64,000 bases of DNA from an uncultured Actinomycetes bacterium (GCA_963808315.1 CAWEFK010000012.1:16274-80273); one strand, 5' to 3'; counted from the first letter of the stretch, positions 2,803 through 58,295 are shown. Program-made: numbers and translations. Notes: generated by a model not told the origin, from the letters alone.

Positions 2803-4061
2803 CCAGCCCGGAGGGCGGCCTGCCGCTGGCCGGGCTGCTGGTGGTGGCGCTTGAGCAGGCGGTGGCGGCCCCGTTCGCCACCCGGCAGCTCGCCGACCTC
2901 GGCGCCCGCGTCATCAAGGTGGAGCGGCCCGGCGGCGACTTCGCCCGCGGCTATGACCGGACGGTGCTCGGCCAGGCCAGCTACTTCGTCTGGCTGAACC
3001 GGGGCAAGGAATCGGTGGAGCTCGACGTCAAGACCCCGGCCGGCCAGGCGGCGCTGGCCGCGCTGCTGTCCCGGGCCGACATCTTCGTGCAGAATCTCGC
3101 CCCGGGTGCGGCCGAACGGCTCGGGCTCGGCGCCGACCAGCTCCGGGCCCGTCATCCGCGGCTTATCTGCTGCTCGGTCTCCGGCTACGGGCCGGACGGG
3201 CCCTACGCCGGCAAAAAGGCCTACGACCTGCTGGTGCAGTGTGAGGCCGGGCTGCTTTCCGTCACCGGCACCCCGGAAGCTCCGTGCAAGGCCGGGATCT
3301 CGGTGGCCGACATCGCGGCCGGCATGTACGCCTACAGCGGGATGCTGACCGCGCTGTACGAGCGGGAGCGCACCGGCCGCGGCGCGAGCTTGCAGGTGTC
3401 CCTGCTTGACGCGCTGGGCGAGTGGATGAGCCAGCCGCTGTACTACACGGTCTACGGCGGGCAGGACGTCCGGCGCACCGGGGCCCGGCACGCGTCCATC
3501 TCGCCGTACGGGCCCTACCTGGGCGGGCAGGTGTTCCTGGGCCTGCAGAACGATCGTGAGTGGGCCGTGCTCTGCGAGCAGGTCCTGGGCCGGCCCGACC
3601 TGATCACCGACGAGCGGTTCGCCACCAACCCCGACCGGGTGGCCCACGACGACGCGCTGACGCCGATCATCGAGGCCGCCCTGGGCGACATGGCGCCAGA
3701 ACAGGTGGTGGCCCGGCTGGACGCGGCCGGCATCGCCAGCGCCCGGTTGCGCACGCCCGCGGAGTTCGCGGCGCACCCGCAGCTCGCGGCCCGGGACCGG
3801 TGGCGTGAGGTGGCCACCCCGGCCGGCCCGGTCCGGGCGCTGCTCCCGCCGGTGACCGTGCCCGGCCGCGAGGCCGCCATGGGCGCGGTGCCCGGGCTCG
3901 GTCAGCACACCGACGCCGTACTGTCCGAATTCGAGATCCCCCTCGCCAGCGGCGGCCAGGAGGCACATCATGTGCCAGAGCCCCTGGGAACCGGAGGAAG
4001 CCGAGTGGACGCTGACGGCGCAGGCACCCGCACCGCCGCCACTGACGAGAGGATGTCATGA
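2799..4061 (+). CDS. Family III CoA-transferase (CaiB/BaiF type)
   Basis: N-terminal motif LAGLLVVALEQAVAAPFATRQLADLGARVIKVERPGGDFARGYD. Its ATG overlaps the ACAD stop (ATGA). Confidence 0.9.
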   Translation: MTSPEGGLPLAGLLVVALEQAVAAPFATRQLADLGARVIKVERPGGDFARGYDRTVLGQASYFVWLNRGKESVELDVKTPAGQAALAALLSRADIFVQNLAPGAAERLGLGADQLRARHPRLICCSVSGYGPDGPYAGKKAYDLLVQCEAGLLSVTGTPEAPCKAGISVADIAAGMYAYSGMLTALYERERTGRGASLQVSLLDALGEWMSQPLYYTVYGGQDVRRTGARHASISPYGPYLGGQVFLGLQNDREWAVLCEQVLGRPDLITDERFATNPDRVAHDDALTPIIEAALGDMAPEQVVARLDAAGIASARLRTPAEFAAHPQLAARDRWREVATPAGPVRALLPPVTVPGREAAMGAVPGLGQHTDAVLSEFEIPLASGGQEAHHVPEPLGTGGSRVDADGAGTRTAATDERMS

Positions 4062-5551
4062 CCGACACGGCAACGAACGTTGACCAGCCGCGCTACCAGC
4101 TCGTCATCGACGGGCAGCGGGTAGAGGCGGCCTCCGGGCAGCGGTACGACAGCGTCGACCCGTACCTCGGCGCGCCCTGGTCCTCGGCGGCCGACGGCGG
4201 CGGCGCCGACGTCGACGCCGCGGTGGCCGCCGCGCGCCGCGCGCTGACCGGGCCGTGGGGTCAGCTGACCGGGTTCGGGCGGGCCGCCCTGATGCGACGG
4301 CTCGGCGACCTGATCGCCCGGGACGCGGACCGGCTGGCCGAGATCGAGACCCGCGACACCGGCAAGCTGCTCCGCGAGATGCGCGGGCAGCTGGGCACCA
4401 TCCCTGAGTGGTTCTACTACTTCTCCGGGCTGGCCGACAAGCTCGAGGGCACCACCGTCCCGGTGGACAAGCCGAACTTCCTCGTCTACACCCGCCACGA
4501 GCCGGCCGGGGTGGTCGCGGCGATCGTGCCGTGGAACTCCCCGCTGCTGCTGCTGACCTGGAAGCTGGCACCGGCCCTGGCCGCGGGCTGCACGATGGTG
4601 GCCAAACCGAGCGACTACTCCCCCGCCTCGGCGGTCGAGCTGGCCGCGCTGATGGACGAGGCCGGGTTCCCGCCGGGCGTGTTCAACGTCGTCACCGGCT
4701 TCGGGCCCGCGGTCGGCAAGGCCCTGGCCGCGCACCCGGACGTGGACAAGGTCGCGTTCACCGGCTCGACCGCCGTCGGCGCGCAGGTGGCCGCGGCGGC
4801 GGCGGCGAACATCACCGGGGTGCTGCTCGAGCTCGGCGGCAAGTCCGCGCACCTGGTCTTCGACGACGCCGACCTCGACGCGGCCTGCAACGGCGTGCTG
4901 GCCGGCGTGTTCGCCGCCACCGGCCAGACCTGCATGGCCGGCTCACGGCTGCTGGTGGCCCGGTCCGTGCACGACGCGCTGGTGGACAAGATCACCGGCC
5001 GGGCCCGGGCGATCCGGCTCGGTGACCCGCGGGCGGCCGACACCGAGATGGGCCCGGTGGCCACCGAGCCGCAGTACCGCAAGGTGCTGTCGTTCCTGGA
5101 GTCGGCGGCCGGCGAGGGCGCGACCATCGCGGCAGGCGGTCACGCGGACGAGGCGCTCGGCGGCTTCTTCGTCCAGCCCACCGTGCTGACCGGCGTCAAG
5201 CCGACCATGACGGTGGCGTGCGAGGAGGTCTTCGGCCCGGTGCTGTCCGTCATCGGATTCGACACCGAGGACGAGGCCATCGCGCTGGCCAACGACAGCC
5301 GCTACGGGCTGGCCGGCGCCGTCTGGACCAAGGACATCCACCGCGGTCACCGGGTCGCCCACGCCCTGCGCACCGGCACCGTATGGATCAACGCCTACCG
5401 GGTGGTGGGGCCGGACGTCCCGTTCGGCGGGTACGGGCTGTCCGGGCTCGGCCGCGAGAACGGCATCGACGCGGTCCACGAGTACACCCAGACCAAGGCC
5501 ATCTGGGTGGAGCTCACCGGCGGCACCCGCGACCCCTTCACCCTCGGTTGA
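4058..5551 (+). CDS. NAD(P)-dependent aldehyde dehydrogenase
   Basis: 497 aa with FTGSTAVG, ELGGKSA and the FAATGQTCMAGSR catalytic-Cys region. The start overlaps the preceding stop. Confidence 0.92.
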   Translation: MTDTATNVDQPRYQLVIDGQRVEAASGQRYDSVDPYLGAPWSSAADGGGADVDAAVAAARRALTGPWGQLTGFGRAALMRRLGDLIARDADRLAEIETRDTGKLLREMRGQLGTIPEWFYYFSGLADKLEGTTVPVDKPNFLVYTRHEPAGVVAAIVPWNSPLLLLTWKLAPALAAGCTMVAKPSDYSPASAVELAALMDEAGFPPGVFNVVTGFGPAVGKALAAHPDVDKVAFTGSTAVGAQVAAAAAANITGVLLELGGKSAHLVFDDADLDAACNGVLAGVFAATGQTCMAGSRLLVARSVHDALVDKITGRARAIRLGDPRAADTEMGPVATEPQYRKVLSFLESAAGEGATIAAGGHADEALGGFFVQPTVLTGVKPTMTVACEEVFGPVLSVIGFDTEDEAIALANDSRYGLAGAVWTKDIHRGHRVAHALRTGTVWINAYRVVGPDVPFGGYGLSGLGRENGIDAVHEYTQTKAIWVELTGGTRDPFTLG

Positions 5552-5631: not shown

Positions 5632-6380
5632 TCAGCCGTTCGCGATGATTCGCAGGAACGTCGTCGGCTGGCCGGAATGATACCGCTTCTCCTGGCTGAG
5701 CCGTAGTGCGATAGGCCCGCCCTGGAAGCCGTGGGAATAGACCATGGGATCAGCTTCCCGCACGCCGCCGATGGCGAGTACCACGACGTGGATTCCCGTT
5801 CCCCCGCGGAATACACAGAGGTCCCCGCGCCAGGTCTGCTCGAACGGGATGTGCGGCAGGTGCGAGAGCATGGTGCCCGTATAGCCGCTGCCGTCGTAAT
5901 TCAGGCCGTTGGGGTCGGGCATCTCGCTCCGCTCGGCCATTATGGTGACGAAGCCGGAGCAGTCGGTGGTGACGCTGCTGCTGGTACGAGCCGGAGGCCG
6001 GGGATCGGCTGGACCTCGGCGTAGTCCCAGTGTGCCTTATCGCTGACGGCCCAGGCGCAGTTGTCCACCATGGCGAATTCGAAGTGGAGCTGGCGTCCGC
6101 CCCACCAGGGGACGGCTGTGTCGGCGGGCAGGTCGAGGACGCCGACTGGGCGGGCGCGGTGGCAGATCCGGCGGTGGTGGCCGACGCCTGGCACGAGGAG
6201 GTCGACTTCGCGGAGCAGTTCGTCGCCGGCTCGCCCGACCACGCCGTCCGCAGCCCCATGCAAGACGGCACGACCGTCGCGCTGCGCGAGGTGATACTGC
6301 CCTGCGCACAGCCAGAGCAGGGTGGGCTCCACCGCGAAACGCCCTCCCTGCTCGAGTAGTACGCATTCAGAGAGAAGCAC
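5632..6380 (-). pseudogene. NlpC/P60 (C40)-like cysteine peptidase domain protein with an unrecognised N-terminal domain; frame shift near 5975-6000
   Basis: The C-terminal frame reads TTDCSGFVTIMAERSE...WRGDLCVFRGGTGIHVVVLAIGG...MVYSHG, giving the DCSGF catalytic Cys and His residues of the NlpC/P60 fold. The N-terminal 146-aa ORF (5940..6380) is in another frame and ends exactly where the peptidase domain begins. Confidence 0.55.
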
Positions 6381-6444
6381 CGCATTCCTTCGCGTCCTAG
6401 CGTTGGTCAGTCAGATACGCGACGAATTGCGAGGGGCAGGCGCA

Positions 6445-7827
6445 GTGGCTGACCATGCCGTGGTACTCGGGGGCAGTATCGCAGGGTTGCTCGCAGCCCG
6501 GGTGCTGGCGGATACCTGCGAGCAGGTGACAGTTGTCGATCGTGACGTCTTTTCCGAGGTGATCCAGCCTCGGCAGGCCGTACCGCAAGGCCACCATATT
6601 CACGCTCTGCTGGCCCGCGGCCAGCAGATCTTCGAGGAGATCTTTCCCGGGTTCACCGACGAGCTGATCAGTCGCGGCGTACCCGTCGGCGACTTCGGGA
6701 TGAGCCTGAGCTGGTACTTCAACGGCAAGATGATCCGCAAGGCGCACACCGGGCTAGTCTGCATGGCGGCCGGGCGGCCACTGCTGGAAACTTACATTCG
6801 CGGCCGTGTGCGGGCGATGCCCAACGTGACCTTCCGTGAAAATACCAGCATCCGCGGGCTTGTCACGCCGACCGTTCCCAGCCGTATCACCGGCGTGCGC
6901 ATCCAGGGCCCCGACGCGAGCGCGCCGGAAGAAGTGCTCGACGCCGACCTGGTCGTCGATACGACAGGCCGCGGGTCGCGCATGCCGCACTGGCTGGAGG
7001 AACTGGGCTACGGGCGGGTCGAGGAAGAGCGGGTCGCGATGGACCTGACCTACACCACCTGCGACTACCGGGCACCATTGTCGTTCGACCCGATCGGCGA
7101 GGACATTGCCATCATTCCGGTGGCGACTCCGGCCATGCCGCGCGGGGCGATCTTCGCGAGGATGCCGGACCGCTACGCGATCTCTCTCACCGGCATCCTC
7201 GGTGACCGGCCGCCGACCGATCGCGAGGGATTCCTCGAATACATCAAGTCCCTCCCCGTTCCGGAGATCTACCAGGCGGCCCGCCGGGCCGAGCCGCTCG
7301 GCACGCCGGCCACTTTCCGGTTTCCCGCGAGCATCCGGCGGCACTACGAACGGCTGCCCAAGCTCCCCGGCGGCCTGCTAGCGATGGGGGACGCGGCGTG
7401 CATCTTCAACCCCGTGTACGCCCAGGGAATGACCGCCGCTGCGGTCGAGGCGCTCGTCTTGGCCGGGCATCTGGCCGAGGGCTCGCCGCAGCCAGCCGGA
7501 TACTTCCGTGCCCTCGCGCGGGTGATCGACGCGCCGTGGGATATGTCGGCCGGCGCCGATCTCGGCTTCAAAGGAACGAAGGGCCGGCGCACGCTGAAGG
7601 TACGGATGGGAAACATCTACATCCCGCGGCTGCAAGCGGCCGCCGTGACCGATGGCTTCCTCTCGGCGGCGTTCCTGCGGACGGCCGGGCTCGTCGACCC
7701 GCCGCAGGCGCTATTGCGACCCGGCGTCGTCGCGCGCGTGCTGTTCTCACGGTCCGGCGGACCTGCCATCGCGACGGGCAGGCCCGCCACGAGGCTGCCG
7801 GACACCGACCACGTCACAACCAGGTAG
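6445..7827 (+). CDS. FAD-dependent oxidoreductase/monooxygenase
   Basis: Track ORF 6322..7827. The Rossmann motif AVVLGGSIAGLLAARVL...VTVVDRD follows directly after GTG 6445, which has GAGGGG 8 nt upstream. The earlier start would overlap the convergent gene. A GDAACIFNPVYAQGM motif occurs late in the protein. Confidence 0.8.
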   Translation: MADHAVVLGGSIAGLLAARVLADTCEQVTVVDRDVFSEVIQPRQAVPQGHHIHALLARGQQIFEEIFPGFTDELISRGVPVGDFGMSLSWYFNGKMIRKAHTGLVCMAAGRPLLETYIRGRVRAMPNVTFRENTSIRGLVTPTVPSRITGVRIQGPDASAPEEVLDADLVVDTTGRGSRMPHWLEELGYGRVEEERVAMDLTYTTCDYRAPLSFDPIGEDIAIIPVATPAMPRGAIFARMPDRYAISLTGILGDRPPTDREGFLEYIKSLPVPEIYQAARRAEPLGTPATFRFPASIRRHYERLPKLPGGLLAMGDAACIFNPVYAQGMTAAAVEALVLAGHLAEGSPQPAGYFRALARVIDAPWDMSAGADLGFKGTKGRRTLKVRMGNIYIPRLQAAAVTDGFLSAAFLRTAGLVDPPQALLRPGVVARVLFSRSGGPAIATGRPATRLPDTDHVTTR

Positions 7828-10072: not shown

Positions 10073-11233
10073 ATGCGTCCCTTCCGCATCGAGATCCCGG
10101 ACGCCGACCTGGATGAGCTGCGACGCCGCCTTGCGGCCACCCGCTGGCCAGCCGAGCTGCCCGGGAACAGCTGGGGTCGCGGTGTACCGCTCGACTACCT
10201 CAAGGAGCTAGCCGAGTACTGGCGCACCAGCTACGACTGGCGTTCAGCTGAGGCCGAGCTGAACAAATACCCGCAGTTCATCACCGAGATCGACGGCACC
10301 GACGTGCACTTCCTGCATGTCCGTTCCGCTGAACCGGACGCCACGCCGGTGATTCTCACCCACGGCTGGCCGGGCTCGATCGCGGAATTCACGGGGATCA
10401 TCGGACCGCTGACCGACCCCCGGGCTCATGGCGGGAACCCCGCCGACGCCTTCCACCTGGTCATCCCGTCCATACCGGGCTACGGATTCTCCGGCCCGCT
10501 CCGTGAACCCGGCTGGGACATGGTCAGGATCGCCCGCGCGTGGGCAGAGCTGATGCACCGCCTGGGCTACGACAGCTACGTCCCGCAAGGCGGTGACCTG
10601 GGTGCCTGGATCAGCCTGACGCTGGCCGGCGTGGACGCTGCGCATATTCGCGGCGCACACGTGAACTTTCTGGTGACACCCCCGCCCGAAGACCCTGCGG
10701 AGATGGCCGGCCTCGACGAGTCCGACCTCGCCCGCCTCGGCCTGCTGGCCCGGTTCGTCAGCGACGGGTCCGGGTACATGAGGATCCAGTCCACCCGGCC
10801 GCGGACGCTGTCGTACGGGCTGACCGACTCGCCCGTCGGTCAGCTGGCCTGGGTTGTCGAGAAGTTCTGGGAGTGGACCGACTCGGCCAAGGTCCCCGAG
10901 GACGCGGTGAACCGCGATCAGATGCTCACCAACGTCATGATCTACTGGCTGACCGCGACCGCCGGATCTGCCGCCAACCTCTACTACGAGGTCGCCGACC
11001 TCCTCCCGACCGCTGCGACGCCGCCCGGCCCGCAACCACCTCTGCCGGTACCACTAGGCGTCGCGGTCTACCCGCAGGACGCGGCACTGCCCATCCGGCA
11101 ATTCGCGGACCTGCAGTTTCCGAACATCGTGCACTGGCGCGAATACGACCGCGGTGGTCACTTCGCGGCCATGGAGCAGCCCGACGTATTCGTGACAGAC
11201 CTTCGGGCGTTTGTCCGTGCTCTCAGGCTATGA
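10073..11233 (+). CDS. Epoxide hydrolase (microsomal-EH N-terminal domain plus alpha/beta hydrolase)
   Basis: [23 protein letters not shown]...[29 protein letters not shown]...VHFLHVRS...ILTHGWPGS. Confidence 0.9.
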
Positions 11234-39277: not shown

Positions 39278-39670
39278 CTATGCCGCTTCCGTTGGTATTC
39301 CGGGTGGCCTCTGCTTTCCATTGGCCTTGGGGATATACACCCGCCGCACCGGCACCGGCATCCAGGACCTGGCCGTGCGGTGCACCTGCACCGCCATCGC
39401 CATCCTGGCCGGGCTGTCGAGAGCGACGACCCGGTCGATTCCGGCCGTGCGACGGCCAGCGTTGCGCTGGGTCACCTGCCGCACGCTGACCAGCGTGTTG
39501 CTCCATGACCGCAGCATCATCTTCTGCAGGTTCCTGACCTTCGGCCAGTCACCGTCCCGCGCCGCCGTGAAGATCCTCTGCCGCAGCCGCGCTACGCTCT
39601 GCTCGTGGACCGTCCAGTTGATGACGTCCCACTCGCTCGCGCCCTCCGGTCCGTTCACCGTTTCCGGCAT
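39278..39670 (-). pseudogene. Group II intron reverse transcriptase/maturase, N-terminal 130 aa only
   Basis: WDVINWTVHEQSVARLRQRIFTAARDGDWPKVRNLQKMMLRSWSNTLVSVRQVTQRNAGRRTAGID ... VRRVYIPKANGKQRPPGIPT. This matches the typical RT-0/RT-1/RT-2 region of bacterial intron-encoded proteins, followed by a stop. Confidence 0.8.
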
Positions 39671-52852: not shown

Positions 52853-53590
52853 TTAGCCTACTTGGTGGGTGCGCCGGGCGATGAAGACGAATTCGCGGCC
52901 AGGGCGGTCGGGCGCGTCCCGGACGTCCTCGACGACGAACCCCGCGGCCAGCAGCGAGTCGGTGACCTGGTCCCGGCCGCGGAAGCGCAAGGTCGAATCC
53001 GACGTCAGCACGGCGCCGTCCCGCGCGAAGACGAACGTGGCGCGGAAAGATACGAGCTCGTCCCGCACGTCGGTGAGCTCCGTCCAGGCCTCGACGATCC
53101 CGACGTCAGGAATGTCGGTGCGAGAGTAGGTGTGCTCGCGATCCCAGGTCCGCCACGCCTGCCTTTCCGGGTCTCGCGTTTCGAACACGAGATGCCCGTC
53201 CGGGCGCAGGGCGGTCCGCACCCCGCGCAACGTCGATGCCCATTCCTCATCGGTCAGGAAGACCTGGGCGACATTCGCCGTCATGGTCGCCACGTCCGCC
53301 TGCAGCGGAGGCAGCCCGGTGGCGTCACCGTGGACCCACCGCACCCGGTCCGCGTCCGGCTTGGCCCGCGCTACCTCGAGGGAGGCAGCCGCGGGGTCGA
53401 CCCCGACCACCTCGATCCCCCGGGCCGCGAGCAGGCAGGCAAACGTCCCCGTCCCGCAGCCGACGTCGAGGACCGTCCGCGCCCCGAACGCCTCGACCAG
53501 CGCGGCGTACACCTCAAGGTCGCTGCGGTCCGGGTCCAGCGGGTCGTAGATCTCCGCCAGCCGCGGCCGCTCGAAGTGCGCATCAGCCAC
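52853..53590 (-). CDS. Class I SAM-dependent methyltransferase
   Basis: VLDVGCGTGTFACLLAARGIEVVGVD. Confidence 0.9.
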   Translation of the reverse strand: MADAHFERPRLAEIYDPLDPDRSDLEVYAALVEAFGARTVLDVGCGTGTFACLLAARGIEVVGVDPAAASLEVARAKPDADRVRWVHGDATGLPPLQADVATMTANVAQVFLTDEEWASTLRGVRTALRPDGHLVFETRDPERQAWRTWDREHTYSRTDIPDVGIVEAWTELTDVRDELVSFRATFVFARDGAVLTSDSTLRFRGRDQVTDSLLAAGFVVEDVRDAPDRPGREFVFIARRTHQVG

Positions 53591-54164
53591 GGCCGTACCC
53601 GGCCTCGAACGCCCAGGCGGGATAGCTGTTGCGCAGCAGGTCCAGGTGGCCCTCCCACGCGGGCGAGCCGAGCACCGTCGGCGGGAGGAAGGAAATGTCC
53701 GGACCGGTGACGGTGAACCCCCAGCGAAACCCGGCGACCGCCTGGACCACCGGGGTCACCACGGCATCGGGCGCGACACACAGAAAGGCGTGAGCTTCCC
53801 AGTCCATGTCGTACCGGTCCCCGCGCGACGGTGCGTCGAAGAATTCGGGCTTGAGGCCGTACCACGCGTAAGGAGTGGGGATATCACGGTAGATGGCAAT
53901 CGGGTCCATCTCAAAGCCGGTGCCGTCACTATCAGACGAACGGACCAGCTGCGTCCAGCCGAAAATCGCCGCGTAACCGTCGGCCGGATACGTCACGGTG
54001 GCGCGGCAGACCGGGAAATCCCGCGCGAAATCGACGGGCTCACCCTCGCTGAGCAGCAAGTAGCCGAGCGAAGCGGGATCGGTGTTACGGCTGAGCGACA
54101 CATCGACGTACCCGTCGAGTCCGCGCAGGGAGAAGGGGATGCGGGTAGCGGAAATCATCGGCAT
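53583..54164 (-). CDS. Conserved-looking hypothetical protein (193 aa), family not recognised
   Basis: Coherent composition with Trp/Tyr/Phe-rich motifs (YAWYGLKPEFFDAPS, GFRWGFTV). Its 3' end overlaps the methyltransferase start by 8 nt. Confidence 0.65.
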   Translation of the reverse strand: MPMISATRIPFSLRGLDGYVDVSLSRNTDPASLGYLLLSEGEPVDFARDFPVCRATVTYPADGYAAIFGWTQLVRSSDSDGTGFEMDPIAIYRDIPTPYAWYGLKPEFFDAPSRGDRYDMDWEAHAFLCVAPDAVVTPVVQAVAGFRWGFTVTGPDISFLPPTVLGSPAWEGHLDLLRNSYPAWAFEAGYGRG

Positions 54165-55078: not shown

Positions 55079-55092
55079 CCACGCATATTCTT

Positions 55093-55124
55093 GGCATTTC
55101 GTCTTCTGGGCATTTCGTCTTCTG
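55093..55124 (+). repeat. Perfect 16-bp tandem duplication GGCATTTCGTCTTCTG x2 abutting the RBS of the PYP-like gene
   Basis: Read directly. It is followed by GGAGG (55124-28) and GTG 55139. Confidence 0.9.
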
Positions 55125-55138
55125 GAGGCTGGCTGTCC

Positions 55139-55525
55139 GTGACACATAACGCCGCGAGCGTGCGTTGGGGGTTCGACGACCCCGGGCTGTTGGAGGCCCT
55201 GGAGGCGATTCCGCTCGACCGGATCGACGAGATCGGGTTCGGGCTGATCGTGATGAACCGCAGCGGCGAGGTGACCGGCTATAACGCCGCGGAATCGAGG
55301 TTGTCGCGCCTTCCCGCCGAGCGGGTCGTGGGCCGGAACTTCTTCGTGGAGGTCGGCCCGTGCACGAACAACTACCTGGTCGCGCAGCGTTTCCTGCACT
55401 GTGACGAGCTGGACGAGCAGCTCGACTACGTGTTCACGTTCCGGATGGCCCCGGCCCCGGTGCGGCTGCGGCTGCTGGCCCGGGCCTCCTCATCGCGCCA
55501 GTACCTGGCGGTCCGCTCCCGGTGA
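55139..55525 (+). CDS. pyp: Photoactive yellow protein (PYP)-like PAS-domain protein, 128 aa
   Basis: It aligns by eye over its full length with Halorhodospira PYP (125 aa): FGLIVMNRSGEVTGYNAAESRLSRLPAERVVGRNFFVEVGPCT vs [43 protein letters not shown]. Tyr42, Glu46 and Cys69 equivalents are present. The start is taken at GTG 55139 (track ORF starts at TTG 55091). Confidence 0.8.
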   Translation: MTHNAASVRWGFDDPGLLEALEAIPLDRIDEIGFGLIVMNRSGEVTGYNAAESRLSRLPAERVVGRNFFVEVGPCTNNYLVAQRFLHCDELDEQLDYVFTFRMAPAPVRLRLLARASSSRQYLAVRSR

Positions 55526-57330
55526 CCGACGATGCCTGGGCCGGGGGGCGGGACGACGCACAGGAGCTGCAGGATCTGCGTCAGTTCTTCTACCAGTGCC
55601 CGGTCGGGTTGTTCGAGATCGACGACGACGGTCTGGTCCTGAAGGTGAACCCCGCCGCGGTGGCCATGCTCGCCCCGGTGATCGGCGGCGGGAACCTGGC
55701 GGAGCTGTTTCCCGTCCTGGACCGGCTGGCGCCGCAGGTGAGCAAGGTCATCAGCCGCGACCGGAACCGGATGGGGCCGCTGGCGGCCGGGGAGCGGATC
55801 GTTGCTCCCGCCGACGTCCACGTCACGTCGTTCCTGGAGGTCCGCGCCGTGCGGGTCGCCGCCGGGCGGGTCATGGTGGTGCTCTTCGACGTGTCGGCGG
55901 AGGTCCGGCTGACGGCGGAGCGGGACCGGCTCTTCGCGGCGGAAAAGGCGGCTCACGCGGAGGCCGCCGCCGCCCGGGACCGGGCCGAAGCGGTCTCGGC
56001 GCAGGAGCGGGCGGCCCGGCTCAGGCTGCAGGCCCTGCAGGCGGTCACGGCCGGGCTGGCCACGGCGGCCACCTCCGAGCAGATCGCTGACGTGCTGACC
56101 AGGGAGGGCATGGGCCTGGTGGCCGATCACGGGGTCGTGGCCCTGCTCGACCCGGACGGGTCTTACCTGCTGACCCGGGCGACGAGTGACTTCCCTGTCA
56201 GCGTCGCGCTGGCCTACGCCCGGATCCCCGTCGCCCAGGCCGACAAGACACCGGTCGGGCGGGTCGCGCTGCACGGCCAGCGCATCATGATGGCCTCGGC
56301 GCAGGAGATCGCCGACCGGTGTCCCCTGGTCGCGGCCAGCCACGCGCTGACCGGGACCTCGAGCCTGCTGGCGGTCCCGGTCCGGGCGGCGGACCGTACC
56401 ATCGGGGCCCTGGGGTTCGGCTTCCGTGCGGCCGGGCCGGTCAGTGCCGATATCGTCCACGTGGCCGAGACGCTGGCCGAGCTCACCGGGCAGGCCCTGG
56501 CACGGGCCAGGCGGCACGAGGACGACCACGCCGTCGCCCACCGGCTGCAGCAGGCCCTGCTGCCGAAGGTTCCGGCCGAGCTGCCCGGAGTCGGGATCGG
56601 GGTCTGCTACCGGCCGGCCGGCCGCGGCCGCGATGTGGGCGGGGACTGGTACGACGCGTTCACGCTGCCCGCGGGGCGGATCGGGTTCGCGGTCGGCGAC
56701 GTGGTCGGCCACGACCTGGACGCGGCGGTGGCGATGGGTCACCTGCAGCAGCTGCTGCGCTACGTGGCCATGGGCGGAGCCCGCCCCGGCGAGGTGCTCC
56801 AGGCCCTCGACCAGGCCTGCCCGTCGGTCACCGGCACGGACTTCGCCACCCTCGGATACGCCGAGTACGACCCGGCCGCGTCCGTCATCACCTACGCGTG
56901 CGCCGGGCACCCGCCGCCGCTGCTGGCCGCCGGCGGCCATGTCACCTACCTCAACGACGGCCGGTCGGCCCCGCTCGGCTTCAAGGACGGCCCGCGACCC
57001 GAGGCCCGGCTGGCCGTGCCGCCCGGCGCGATGCTGGTCTGGTACTCCGACGGCCTGATCGAACGACGCGGAGAAGTCGTCGACCTGGGCCTGGACCGGC
57101 TCGCCGCCCTCGTCGCCGGCCTGGGCGCCGTCCTGGAGGCCGGCGTGGGCCCCGGCCTGGGCGGCGGCGTGGGCGCCGGCCTGGGCGCCGGCGTGGGCGG
57201 CGGCGACGCGCAGCGCTGGTGCGACGAGCTGATCACGGGTATGACCGCGGGCCAGCCCGTCAGCGACGACGTCGTGGTGGCCTGCCTGCACCTGCGGGGC
57301 GAGCAGGCTCCGATGGACCGCCGAGGATGA
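55522..57330 (+). CDS. PAS-coiled coil-GAF-PP2C (SpoIIE/RsbU-type) serine phosphatase
   Basis: 602 aa. Its GTG overlaps the PYP stop (GTGA). GGDWYDAF, GDVVGHD, YACAGHPPPLL and LVWYSDGLIE are SpoIIE/PP2C motifs. An N-terminal PAS-like segment and a GAF-like middle are present. A Gly/Ala/Val/Leu-rich repeat lies at about 57115-57205. Confidence 0.9.
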   Translation: MTDDAWAGGRDDAQELQDLRQFFYQCPVGLFEIDDDGLVLKVNPAAVAMLAPVIGGGNLAELFPVLDRLAPQVSKVISRDRNRMGPLAAGERIVAPADVHVTSFLEVRAVRVAAGRVMVVLFDVSAEVRLTAERDRLFAAEKAAHAEAAAARDRAEAVSAQERAARLRLQALQAVTAGLATAATSEQIADVLTREGMGLVADHGVVALLDPDGSYLLTRATSDFPVSVALAYARIPVAQADKTPVGRVALHGQRIMMASAQEIADRCPLVAASHALTGTSSLLAVPVRAADRTIGALGFGFRAAGPVSADIVHVAETLAELTGQALARARRHEDDHAVAHRLQQALLPKVPAELPGVGIGVCYRPAGRGRDVGGDWYDAFTLPAGRIGFAVGDVVGHDLDAAVAMGHLQQLLRYVAMGGARPGEVLQALDQACPSVTGTDFATLGYAEYDPAASVITYACAGHPPPLLAAGGHVTYLNDGRSAPLGFKDGPRPEARLAVPPGAMLVWYSDGLIERRGEVVDLGLDRLAALVAGLGAVLEAGVGPGLGGGVGAGLGAGVGGGDAQRWCDELITGMTAGQPVSDDVVVACLHLRGEQAPMDRRG

Positions 57331-58295
57331 GCCGTGTCGTGGTGATCGGAGCGACCGGACACATTGGTAGTTACCTGGTACCACGGCTGGTGCGCGGCGG
57401 CCACGAGGTGATCGCGATGAGCCGCGGGGCCCGTGATCCTTACCGCGCGAGCCCGGAGTGGGGCTCGGTGACGAGGGTCACGATCGACCGTGATGCGGAG
57501 GATGAGGCGGGGACGTTCGGGGCTCGGGTCGCCGCGCAGCGGGCCGATGTGGTGATCGACCTGATCTGCTTCACCGCCGCATCGGCGCGGCAACTCCTCG
57601 ACGCGCTGCGGCCAGCCCGCCCGCTGCTTGTGCACTGCGGAACGATCTGGGTGCACGGTCCCGCGCTGCGGGTGCCGGTAACCGAGGACGAGCCGCGCAC
57701 CGCCTTCGGCGAGTACGGCACGGGCAAGGCGGCGATCGAGGCCCTGCTGCACCGCGAGACGCTGGCGGGCGGGGTGCCAGCCATCGTGCTGCATCCGGGG
57801 CACATCAGCGGCCCGGGCTGGCCGGTCATCACGCCGGCCGGTAACCTGGACCCCGGTGTCTGGGCGTGCCTGGCGGCCGGCCGGGCGGTCGCGCTGCCCG
57901 ATCAGGGACTGGGCGTGCTACATCACGTGCACGCCGATGACGTGGCGCAGGCCTTCGAGCTGGCGCTGTCGCGGCCAGCGGCGGTCGGGGCCAGTTTCCA
58001 CGTGGTAGCCGAGCAGGCGATGACACTGCGCGGTCTGGCGGCCGGGGTGGCAGGGTGGTTCGGCCGGGAGCCTATGCTTGAGTTCGTCGACTGGGCCGAG
58101 TTCGAGCGGCGGGCCGGAGCCGAACACGCCGAGTCCACCCGCCAGCACACCGTTCGCAGTATTACCGCAAGTATCAGGCGCGGTCAAGATGTGCTTGGCT
58201 TCCGGCCGCGGTATAGCTCGCTCGACGCCTTGCACCAGGCGCTGACCTGGCTGGTCGCGGACGGGCAGGTCGACGTGGGCGGACAGTCTTTCTAG
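57327..58295 (+). CDS. NAD-dependent epimerase/dehydratase-family (extended SDR) protein
   Basis: ATG 57327 overlaps the phosphatase stop (ATGA). VVVIGATGHIGSYLVPRLV and YGTGKAA. Frame of track ORF 56319..58295. Confidence 0.88.
   Translation: MSRVVVIGATGHIGSYLVPRLVRGGHEVIAMSRGARDPYRASPEWGSVTRVTIDRDAEDEAGTFGARVAAQRADVVIDLICFTAASARQLLDALRPARPLLVHCGTIWVHGPALRVPVTEDEPRTAFGEYGTGKAAIEALLHRETLAGGVPAIVLHPGHISGPGWPVITPAGNLDPGVWACLAAGRAVALPDQGLGVLHHVHADDVAQAFELALSRPAAVGASFHVVAEQAMTLRGLAAGVAGWFGREPMLEFVDWAEFERRAGAEHAESTRQHTVRSITASIRRGQDVLGFRPRYSSLDALHQALTWLVADGQVDVGGQSF

Follow-up and report, generated by a model that had tools for sequence, protein, structure and literature searches.

A clade C photoactive yellow protein gene coupled to a PP2C phosphatase gene in an uncultured actinomycete points to a candidate receiver domain for photoactive yellow protein signals

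A 64,000-nt stretch of DNA from an uncultured Actinomycetes bacterium (GCA_963808315.1, CAWEFK010000012.1:16274-80273; 68% G+C), hereafter the window, carries a gene for a photoactive yellow protein (PYP) whose stop codon overlaps the start of a gene for a PP2C serine phosphatase of the SpoIIE/RsbU type. The two genes are proposed, with a probability of roughly 60%, to form a portable two-gene light-signalling cassette in which a clade C PYP acts on the phosphatase through a divergent N-terminal PAS-like domain, here called NPAS. A broader proposal, for which the odds appear about even, is that NPAS is a dedicated PYP-receiver domain, a small PAS subfamily that docks light-activated clade C PYPs and that domain shuffling has joined to PP2C, histidine kinase, cyclic di-GMP (c-di-GMP) and MarR outputs. 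An earlier reading of the window, made from its sequence alone (the sequence-only reading), had suggested that a PYP gives light input to a PP2C phosphatase in this actinomycete, and the suggestion is supported as far as computation allows.

The PYP gene (55139..55525, on the + strand, as are the phosphatase gene and the gene that follows it) encodes 128 amino acids (aa) from a GTG start. Judged by profile, database and model comparisons, its product is a member of the PYP family and not a generic PAS protein. The only NCBIfam match was to TIGR02373, the PYP equivalog model, and it ran almost end to end (profile positions 12-122 of 124; E=3.5e-21, 75.6 bits); Pfam returned a marginal PAS match alone (24.4 bits). 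All 33 matches in a sequence search of the PDB were to PYP, to the Ppr PYP domain (the best, E=1.6e-17) or to PYP-derived FAST. An AlphaFold2 (AF2) model (pLDDT 83, pTM 0.80) superposed on PYP with a template modelling (TM) score of 0.83 and a root-mean-square deviation of 2.1 Å over 122 columns, the PYP-specific N-terminal helical cap included; the top 38 Foldseek matches in the PDB were all PYP, Ppr or FAST, and the first PAS domain outside this set followed at E=1.2e-5 and TM 0.62. At least 484 relatives are present in a collection of 5.8 billion proteins, and the 120 listed range from 65 to 95% in identity and from 112 to 164 aa in length; among the matches listed, JGI entries are labelled 'photoactive yellow protein', and several NCBI entries 'PAS domain-containing protein [Streptosporangiaceae bacterium]'. 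Xing et al. (2022, PMC9664959) list in their supplement, under clade C, a Geodermatophilus PYP with which the window protein shares the C-terminal sequence ...RQYLAVR.

The residues that hold the chromophore in PYP are in place. In Halorhodospira halophila numbering, Tyr42 corresponds to Tyr48 (55280-55282), Glu46 to Glu52 (55292-55294) and Cys69 to Cys75 (55361-55363), and the equivalents of Phe62/63, Thr70, Tyr94, Phe96 and Met100 are also conserved. Of 112 homologues from the fetched loci, 99 keep the triad and four others have the known Y42F variant; in the clade alignment the triad is invariant. Every statement of the sequence-only reading about this open reading frame (ORF) holds, namely that it is PYP-like, keeps Tyr42, Glu46 and Cys69, has Ser in place of Thr50 and lacks Arg52 (Leu in the alignment with H. 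halophila PYP). The two substitutions prove to be the norm of the family and no peculiarity of this protein: the consensus of 984 PYPs has Ser47, Leu49, Ala50, Leu52 and Thr97 (Dohmen et al., 2025, PMC12826048), with which the window PYP agrees at positions 47, 49, 52 and 97, and position 52 is Leu, Ile, Phe, Met or Asn, and never Arg, in the 112 homologues. Loss of Arg52 is thus ordinary and was rejected as a sign of altered function.

The window PYP has the same fold, N-terminal cap and triad as H. halophila PYP and the PYP domain of Rhodospirillum centenum Ppr (PDB 2phy and 1mzu), with 128 rather than 125 aa, and is 24-25% identical to the former and 34-41% to the latter. It differs from H. 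halophila PYP in having Ser50 and Leu52, in the loss of Phe92 and Trp119, and in its surroundings, where an NPAS partner takes the place of adjoining genes for a tyrosine ammonia-lyase (TAL) and a p-coumaroyl-CoA ligase (pCL). Identity is 41-47% to clade C PYPs of Burkholderiales (the proteins of Variovorax, Pseudorhodoferax, Sphaerotilus and Janthinobacterium).

NPAS makes up the N-terminal ~130 residues of the phosphatase (residues ~12-141; 55555..55944, + strand), is followed by a long predicted helix, and bears the signature LxQF[FL]YQCPVGL...NPAA..L.AP...DV[ST].E.RL. Its kinship to PAS is suggested by Pfam matches below the gathering scores (PAS_8, E=8.8e-4; PAS, E=1.7e-3), by a profile search of the PDB whose best match was a histidine kinase PAS domain (E=0.002), and by an AF2 model (pLDDT 60.7), used for the order of secondary-structure elements only, in which that order is PAS-like: an N-cap helix, two strands, four helices, three strands and a long C-terminal helix (125-149). 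A phmmer search with the window NPAS against 1.84e9 cluster representatives (50% identity) returned 334 proteins at E<=1e-3, almost always with the domain at the extreme N terminus. In none of the NPAS proteins, whatever their output class, does Pfam annotate this region above threshold, which is probably why a shared domain has so far gone unnoticed.

The evidence that ties NPAS to PYP is their pairing in genomes and metagenomes. When 185,579 species-representative genomes were scanned for patterns taken from the PYP clade, 72 loci emerged, in which NPAS was sought with a local profile HMM within 400 nt downstream of the PYP gene and on the same strand. It lay directly downstream of PYP in 67 of the 72, spread over several phyla. 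Of the five exceptions, one contig ends 127 nt after PYP (L047), one has NPAS on the opposite strand (L052), one has suffered a deletion (L001), and two (L070, L071) hold the most distant PYPs. The genes are separated by -8 to +107 nt, with exactly the 4-nt overlap of the window in about 36 loci. The reverse search, with the NPAS motif L[LR][QE][FL][FL]YQCP and a 5-sequence alignment against 241 million metagenome records, gave 34 loci, 31 of them with upstream sequence; PYP was directly upstream in 30. In the remaining one (L092) NPAS abuts an unrelated permease gene of lower G+C content, and this contig may be chimeric. Five distant NPAS representatives that were sampled (E 2e-10 to 1e-6) all had a PYP with an intact triad upstream. 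In pairwise comparisons, PYP identity correlates with NPAS identity (r=0.76, Mantel p=0.001), which is consistent with inheritance as a unit, although part of the correlation stems from shared phylogeny. No NPAS was found at the classical clade-A pyp locus of Cereibacter sphaeroides.

Pairing of PYP with a PP2C gene, which the sequence-only reading had put forward for the window, is conserved in related Actinomycetota. That reading missed that the conserved element is the N-terminal NPAS of the phosphatase, behind which the outputs vary across phyla.

Some loci depart from the simple one-to-one arrangement. One (L066) has two tandem PYP-NPAS pairs (4311-5038 and 6001-6782); in another (L116:371-4367) a single PYP is followed by an NPAS-PAS-GGDEF and then an NPAS-GGDEF-EAL protein, and in a third (L117:1109-6647) by an NPAS-PAS-GGDEF and then a bacteriophytochrome-GGDEF protein. 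L116 and L117 belong to the five distant NPAS representatives mentioned above. Apparent PYP-NPAS fusions that might serve as 'Rosetta stone' proteins (P0262, P0263, P0299) look like frameshifted or mis-called ORFs and were not used.

The outputs behind NPAS fall into several classes. SpoIIE/PP2C domains, with or without GAF and PAS domains and in proteins of 365 to ~990 aa, occur in Streptosporangiaceae, other Actinomycetes, Acidimicrobiia and Solirubrobacteraceae; HisKA/HATPase_c histidine kinases in Spirochaetes, Nannocystis, Schleiferiaceae, Verrucomicrobiae, Chthoniobacterales, Planctomycetales and some Proteobacteria; and GGDEF or GGDEF-EAL domains in Burkholderiales, Acetobacteraceae, Bryobacterales and others. 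A MarR-type winged helix is found in Actinomycetospora chlora and Pseudonocardia spirodelae, a short helical tail in Nocardioides and Marmoricola, and no output at all in a 146-aa stand-alone NPAS of Hydrogenophaga. Cultured carriers include Nocardioides rubriscoriae, A. chlora, P. spirodelae and Geodermatophilus poikilotrophus. The NPAS-MarR genes that follow PYP (L031:6351-7214 and L059:6336-7205, from A. chlora and P. spirodelae) are predicted to encode PYP-controlled one-component transcription factors; a further gene, in a metagenome-assembled genome (MAG) of Pseudonocardiales (L027:4192-5067), looks NPAS-MarR-like by eye, outside the Pfam scan. Among the closest known systems are the Burkholderiales clade C PYPs with GGDEF/EAL proteins and the PYP-GGDEF biofilm system of Idiomarina loihiensis, in which PYP likewise comes first and a signalling enzyme directly downstream. 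The downstream proteins of Burkholderiales carry the same N-terminal NPAS, but their output is a c-di-GMP enzyme, whereas that of the window is a PP2C phosphatase with a GAF domain.

The phosphatase gene (55522..57330, + strand) encodes 602 aa from a GTG that overlaps the PYP stop codon (GTGA). NPAS and its helix are followed by a GAF domain (residues 183-328; 56068..56505; Pfam GAF_2 match at 183-326, 52.5 bits) and a PP2C/SpoIIE catalytic domain (residues 384-602; 56671..57327; PF07228, 127 bits against a cutoff of 25). GAF is optional in the family, as there are NPAS-PP2C versions of 365-405 aa that do without it. The nearest solved PP2C domain is that of Mycobacterium tuberculosis Rv1364c (PDB 3ke6; E=1.1e-23), and the catalytic and metal-binding motifs GGDWYD, GDVVGH(D), AGHPPP and SDGLIERR and the terminal DD are kept in comparison with Rv1364c and with clade members, so that the phosphatase is catalytically intact by its sequence and expected to be an active enzyme. 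Rv1364c is an actinobacterial PAS-PP2C protein of the SigF pathway with kinase and STAS domains fused in the same chain and is not known to have a PYP partner. Inside the PP2C domain of the window protein, Tandem Repeats Finder detected an in-frame array of 12/24-bp repeats (57102..57204, + strand; 8.6 copies) that encodes a Gly/Ala/Val-rich insert of ~24 aa; in alignments this insert is found neither in the 76%-identical orthologue of L075 nor in other clade members.

In the proposed mechanism, p-coumarate would be attached to the PYP by a thioester bond at Cys75, and its phenolate would form hydrogen bonds with Tyr48 and Glu52; blue light would isomerise the chromophore and give a partly unfolded signalling state, as membership of the family suggests. 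The near-obligate gene pairing points to a light state that would bind to, or be released from, an NPAS dimer, and the change may then travel along the helical linker and by way of the GAF domain to switch the PP2C dimer, by analogy with RsbT-RsbU and with the toolkit of exchangeable coiled coils described by Baral et al. (2025, PMC12143880). There, RsbT activates RsbU through a coiled-coil linker whose logic is common to PP2C, GGDEF and histidine kinase outputs; NPAS outputs belong to the same three classes, with MarR in addition. One clade-A PYP is listed beside genes for an anti-sigma antagonist, an ATP-binding protein and a PAS-SpoIIE protein (supplement of PMC9664959), an independent association of PYP with a phosphatase of the partner-switching type. 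The phosphatase of the window would, as its homology to Rv1364c and RsbU suggests, dephosphorylate a STAS-type anti-sigma antagonist encoded elsewhere and so free an alternative sigma factor; the output is thus probably sigma-factor partner switching. In actinomycetes, PP2C substrates are often encoded elsewhere in the genome.

The arrangement resembles RsbQ-RsbP and RsbT-RsbU of Bacillus subtilis, in which a small partner controls a PP2C phosphatase through a PAS or helical domain at the N terminus of the phosphatase, together with a helical linker, as is proposed here. The rsbQ and rsbP genes form a two-gene operon with rsbQ upstream of the PAS-PP2C gene, and blue light enters the sigma-B pathway through the LOV protein YtvA. 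By this comparison the window system would differ from that of Bacillus in that the partner is a PYP photoreceptor and that no stressosome, RsbV/W or sigma genes are linked to it.

Several points weigh against the proposed light-signalling cassette. The TIGR02373 score of the window PYP lies below the curated cutoff of 143.05 bits, and clade C PYPs have never been characterised (PMC9664959). Among ~40 window ORFs searched with Pfam, none encodes an aromatic lyase, a stand-alone CoA ligase, a STAS protein, a kinase of the RsbW type or a sigma factor. The AF2 model of NPAS is of low confidence, and its Foldseek matches to PAS domains are weak (E >= 0.014). Many of the sampled loci are from close kin among soil Actinomycetota and are not independent, and adjacency and correlated divergence are no proof of physical contact; the correlation is also expected from shared ancestry alone.

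The score, the clade and the missing lyase and ligase genes are also what would favour a protein that has the fold of a PYP without being a p-coumarate photoreceptor here, and that regulates the phosphatase through another cinnamate-type chromophore or by sensing redox state or a small ligand, a change of function towards redox sensing having been proposed for some PYPs (Xing et al., PMC9664959). The sub-cutoff score, however, is to be expected, since TIGR02373 recognises only ~20% of accepted PYP homologues and clade C proteins are flagged 'photo_yellow (< cutoff)' in the tables of the same study. As the sequence-only reading had stated, the window lacks a TAL/HAL-type lyase and a coumarate ligase: the MIO (4-methylideneimidazole-5-one) motif GASGD is absent from all six frames of the 64 kb, and the only AMP-binding motifs are those of four adenylation domains of nonribosomal peptide synthetases (NRPS) at ~15.8-25.4 kb. 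Nor was TAL or pCL found within 10 kb of the pair in two relatives with long flanks (L074, L075), in neither of which STAS, RsbW-type kinase or sigma factor genes were detected. Such absence is normal, because only 5% of pyp operons contain TAL and 32% pCL in a published survey. Where PYP is paired with an NPAS histidine kinase in Schleiferiaceae (Bacteroidota; L038, L041, L044), an MIO-type motif, GSVGASGDL, lies ~4.4 kb downstream of the pair, around position 10746, in what is likely to be a TAL for chromophore supply; an AMP-dependent ligase gene is found ~3.5 kb downstream, on the opposite strand, in three loci of Streptosporangiaceae type (L002, L005, L008). With the triad and the other pocket residues conserved, with genes for chromophore supply seldom adjacent to pyp in general, and with a lyase near the pair in Schleiferiaceae, a PYP that has given up p-coumarate is considered unlikely here.

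Alternatively, PYP and phosphatase could be co-expressed without contact, NPAS sensing a signal of its own and PYP acting on some other target or merely sharing regulation. The only biochemically demonstrated PYP partner is PBP (RCAP_rcc01067) of Rhodobacter capsulatus, the product of an adjacent gene, a dimer that binds the light-activated state of Rc-PYP (Kim et al., 2021, bioRxiv 10.1101/2021.06.01.446672). It is a precedent for partners encoded next door, but unlike the NPAS phosphatase of the window it has 142 aa and no output domain, and it appears to be unrelated to NPAS. The latter comparison was made with a presumed counterpart, a 142-aa ORF without a Pfam match that precedes the classical pyp gene of C. 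sphaeroides by 24 nt (L111:5548-5976) and that, being of the same length, is probably the counterpart of PBP; hhalign gave it a probability of 0.2% against the NPAS profile, and with NPAS missing from that locus the idea that NPAS is PBP fused to outputs was rejected. Downstream of pyp, C. sphaeroides has two ORFs of 188 and 166 aa without annotation and a gene for an AMP-binding ligase. A PAS-like NPAS could also bind a ligand of its own. Independent action of the two proteins is nevertheless judged quite improbable: the pairing is near-obligate in both directions and across phyla while the output changes, the 4-nt overlap recurs, NPAS without an output also occurs beside PYP (L054), and one PYP precedes two NPAS proteins in loci such as L116.

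The third gene of the window, an extended short-chain dehydrogenase/reductase (SDR) gene of the NAD-epimerase/dehydratase family (57327..58295, + strand; 322 aa), has a Rossmann motif, GATGHIG, and a PF01370 match of 73.9 bits, but no specific family assignment; matches to thioester-reductase and epimerase families are weak and generic. Both 4-nt overlaps described by the sequence-only reading are present, the PYP TGA with the PP2C GTG (GTGA) and the PP2C TGA with the epimerase ATG (ATGA). The three-gene coupled unit built on them did not stand: in tblastn searches the epimerase gene lies downstream of the pair only in L073, a 2.5-kb Logan contig that is a near-identical copy of the window contig, and in none of the other fetched loci, and the two relatives with long flanks have unrelated genes in its place. 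Although the ATGA overlap suggests co-translation in the window strain, a functional three-gene operon in which the epimerase/SDR serves chromophore or signal metabolism is highly improbable given its absence from all other fetched loci and its lack of a specific family, and with its linkage not conserved the epimerase was rejected as a component of the system; it is a local passenger, locally coupled and not part of a conserved cassette.

That the two genes form a portable cassette is supported by their varying surroundings and by a deletion in the nearest relative. Neither the epimerase nor the upstream methyltransferase is conserved beside PYP, the flanks differ between loci, and in L074 and L075 the pair stands in wholly different gene contexts. 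In the window the genes on either side have nothing to do with signalling and encode a PrmA-like methyltransferase and further methyltransferases, a hydrolase, a major facilitator superfamily (MFS) transporter and a glyoxalase. The closest genomic relative, a Streptosporangiaceae MAG from SPRUCE peat (L001), is 93-95% identical in the amino acid sequences of the methyltransferase and PYP genes, and its region 3571-5253 is syntenic on both sides with ~55.5-60.9 kb of the window, with ~5 kb lost. A single deletion has truncated PYP after ~residue 121, joined it directly to the MFS transporter gene and removed the genes for PP2C, epimerase and hydrolase; if the assembly is correct at this point, the cassette is dispensable or in flux between strains.

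Upstream of PYP, a Shine-Dalgarno sequence (GGAGG; 55125..55129, + strand) lies 9 nt 5' of the GTG start, and the segment from there to the start, CTGGAGG...TGTCCGTGAC, is kept in relatives. The 60-nt spacer between the methyltransferase stop and this ribosome-binding site contains, just upstream of the latter, a 16-bp tandem duplication detected by Tandem Repeats Finder (55088..55125; 2.4 copies of the unit TTCTGGGCATTTCGTC). It is strain-specific, as L001 and six other relatives (L079-L084) have a single copy, and may have arisen by recent slippage or may be a direct repeat with a regulatory role. Between 54.2 and 59.6 kb, promoter and terminator prediction gave no + strand sigma-70-like site and no intrinsic terminator, a scan that is uninformative for a high-GC actinomycete.

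Parts of this picture are present in the literature. Clade C PYPs adjoining GGDEF genes and other PYPs adjoining histidine kinase genes have been published, and PYPs are known from Actinobacteria, being counted in <5 genomes in a 2022 survey. SpoIIE/RsbU neighbours of PYP appear only as rows of supplementary tables, for Geodermatophilus poikilotrophus and an alphaproteobacterium (PMC9664959) and for a 780-aa RsbU of Polaromonas vacuolata (PMC12826048); the words phosphatase, PP2C and SpoIIE are absent from the main texts of both surveys. In line with the remark of the sequence-only reading that a separate PYP with a PP2C protein was not known to have been characterised, no paper discussing PYP together with PP2C, SpoIIE or RsbU was found in the literature searched. 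The shared N-terminal domain and the PP2C and MarR outputs are undescribed in the two surveys, which do not list a MarR output class, and an earlier remark on this domain by Meyer et al. (2012) is possible. What is added here is a candidate receiver, NPAS, that may be universal among clade C PYPs; published tables of gene neighbourhoods anticipate the system in part.

Other features were noted in the rest of the window. An NRPS cluster on the - strand (~14.5-28.1 kb) has condensation, adenylation and peptidyl carrier protein domains, with four adenylation-core motifs, and is flanked by genes for two P450s, an epoxide hydrolase, an O-methyltransferase, a glucose-methanol-choline (GMC) oxidoreductase, an SDR, a zinc-dependent alcohol dehydrogenase and an MFS transporter. 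Third-position G+C is lower across ~26-37 kb (0.68-0.80) than in the rest of the window. A 130-aa ORF (39281-39670, - strand) whose sole match is to the N-terminal domain of reverse transcriptases of the group II intron type (RVT_N, E=1.3e-28) is probably a mobile-element fragment, and a 193-aa ORF (53583-54164, - strand) with coding-like codon bias and no Pfam match is conserved at the equivalent position of L001.

How a single-domain PYP passes its signal downstream is called unresolved in both surveys and in the 2021 preprint (PMC9664959, PMC12826048, bioRxiv 10.1101/2021.06.01.446672), and the ~130 residues of NPAS offer a specific candidate receiver of that signal, whatever the output, which two small soluble proteins suffice to study. 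The outputs of PYP would be widened beyond phototaxis, histidine kinases and c-di-GMP to a serine phosphatase, probably with control of a sigma factor, and to MarR proteins, and PYP signalling would reach the soil and peat Actinomycetota, in which PYPs have been thought very rare. The cassette also offers naturally modular light-switch parts for optogenetics. If NPAS is indeed the receiver, the window would hold the first serine phosphatase under the control of a PYP, and so possibly a sigma-factor switch governed by PYP, and NPAS would provide the first general, sequence-defined answer to the question of what PYP signals to.

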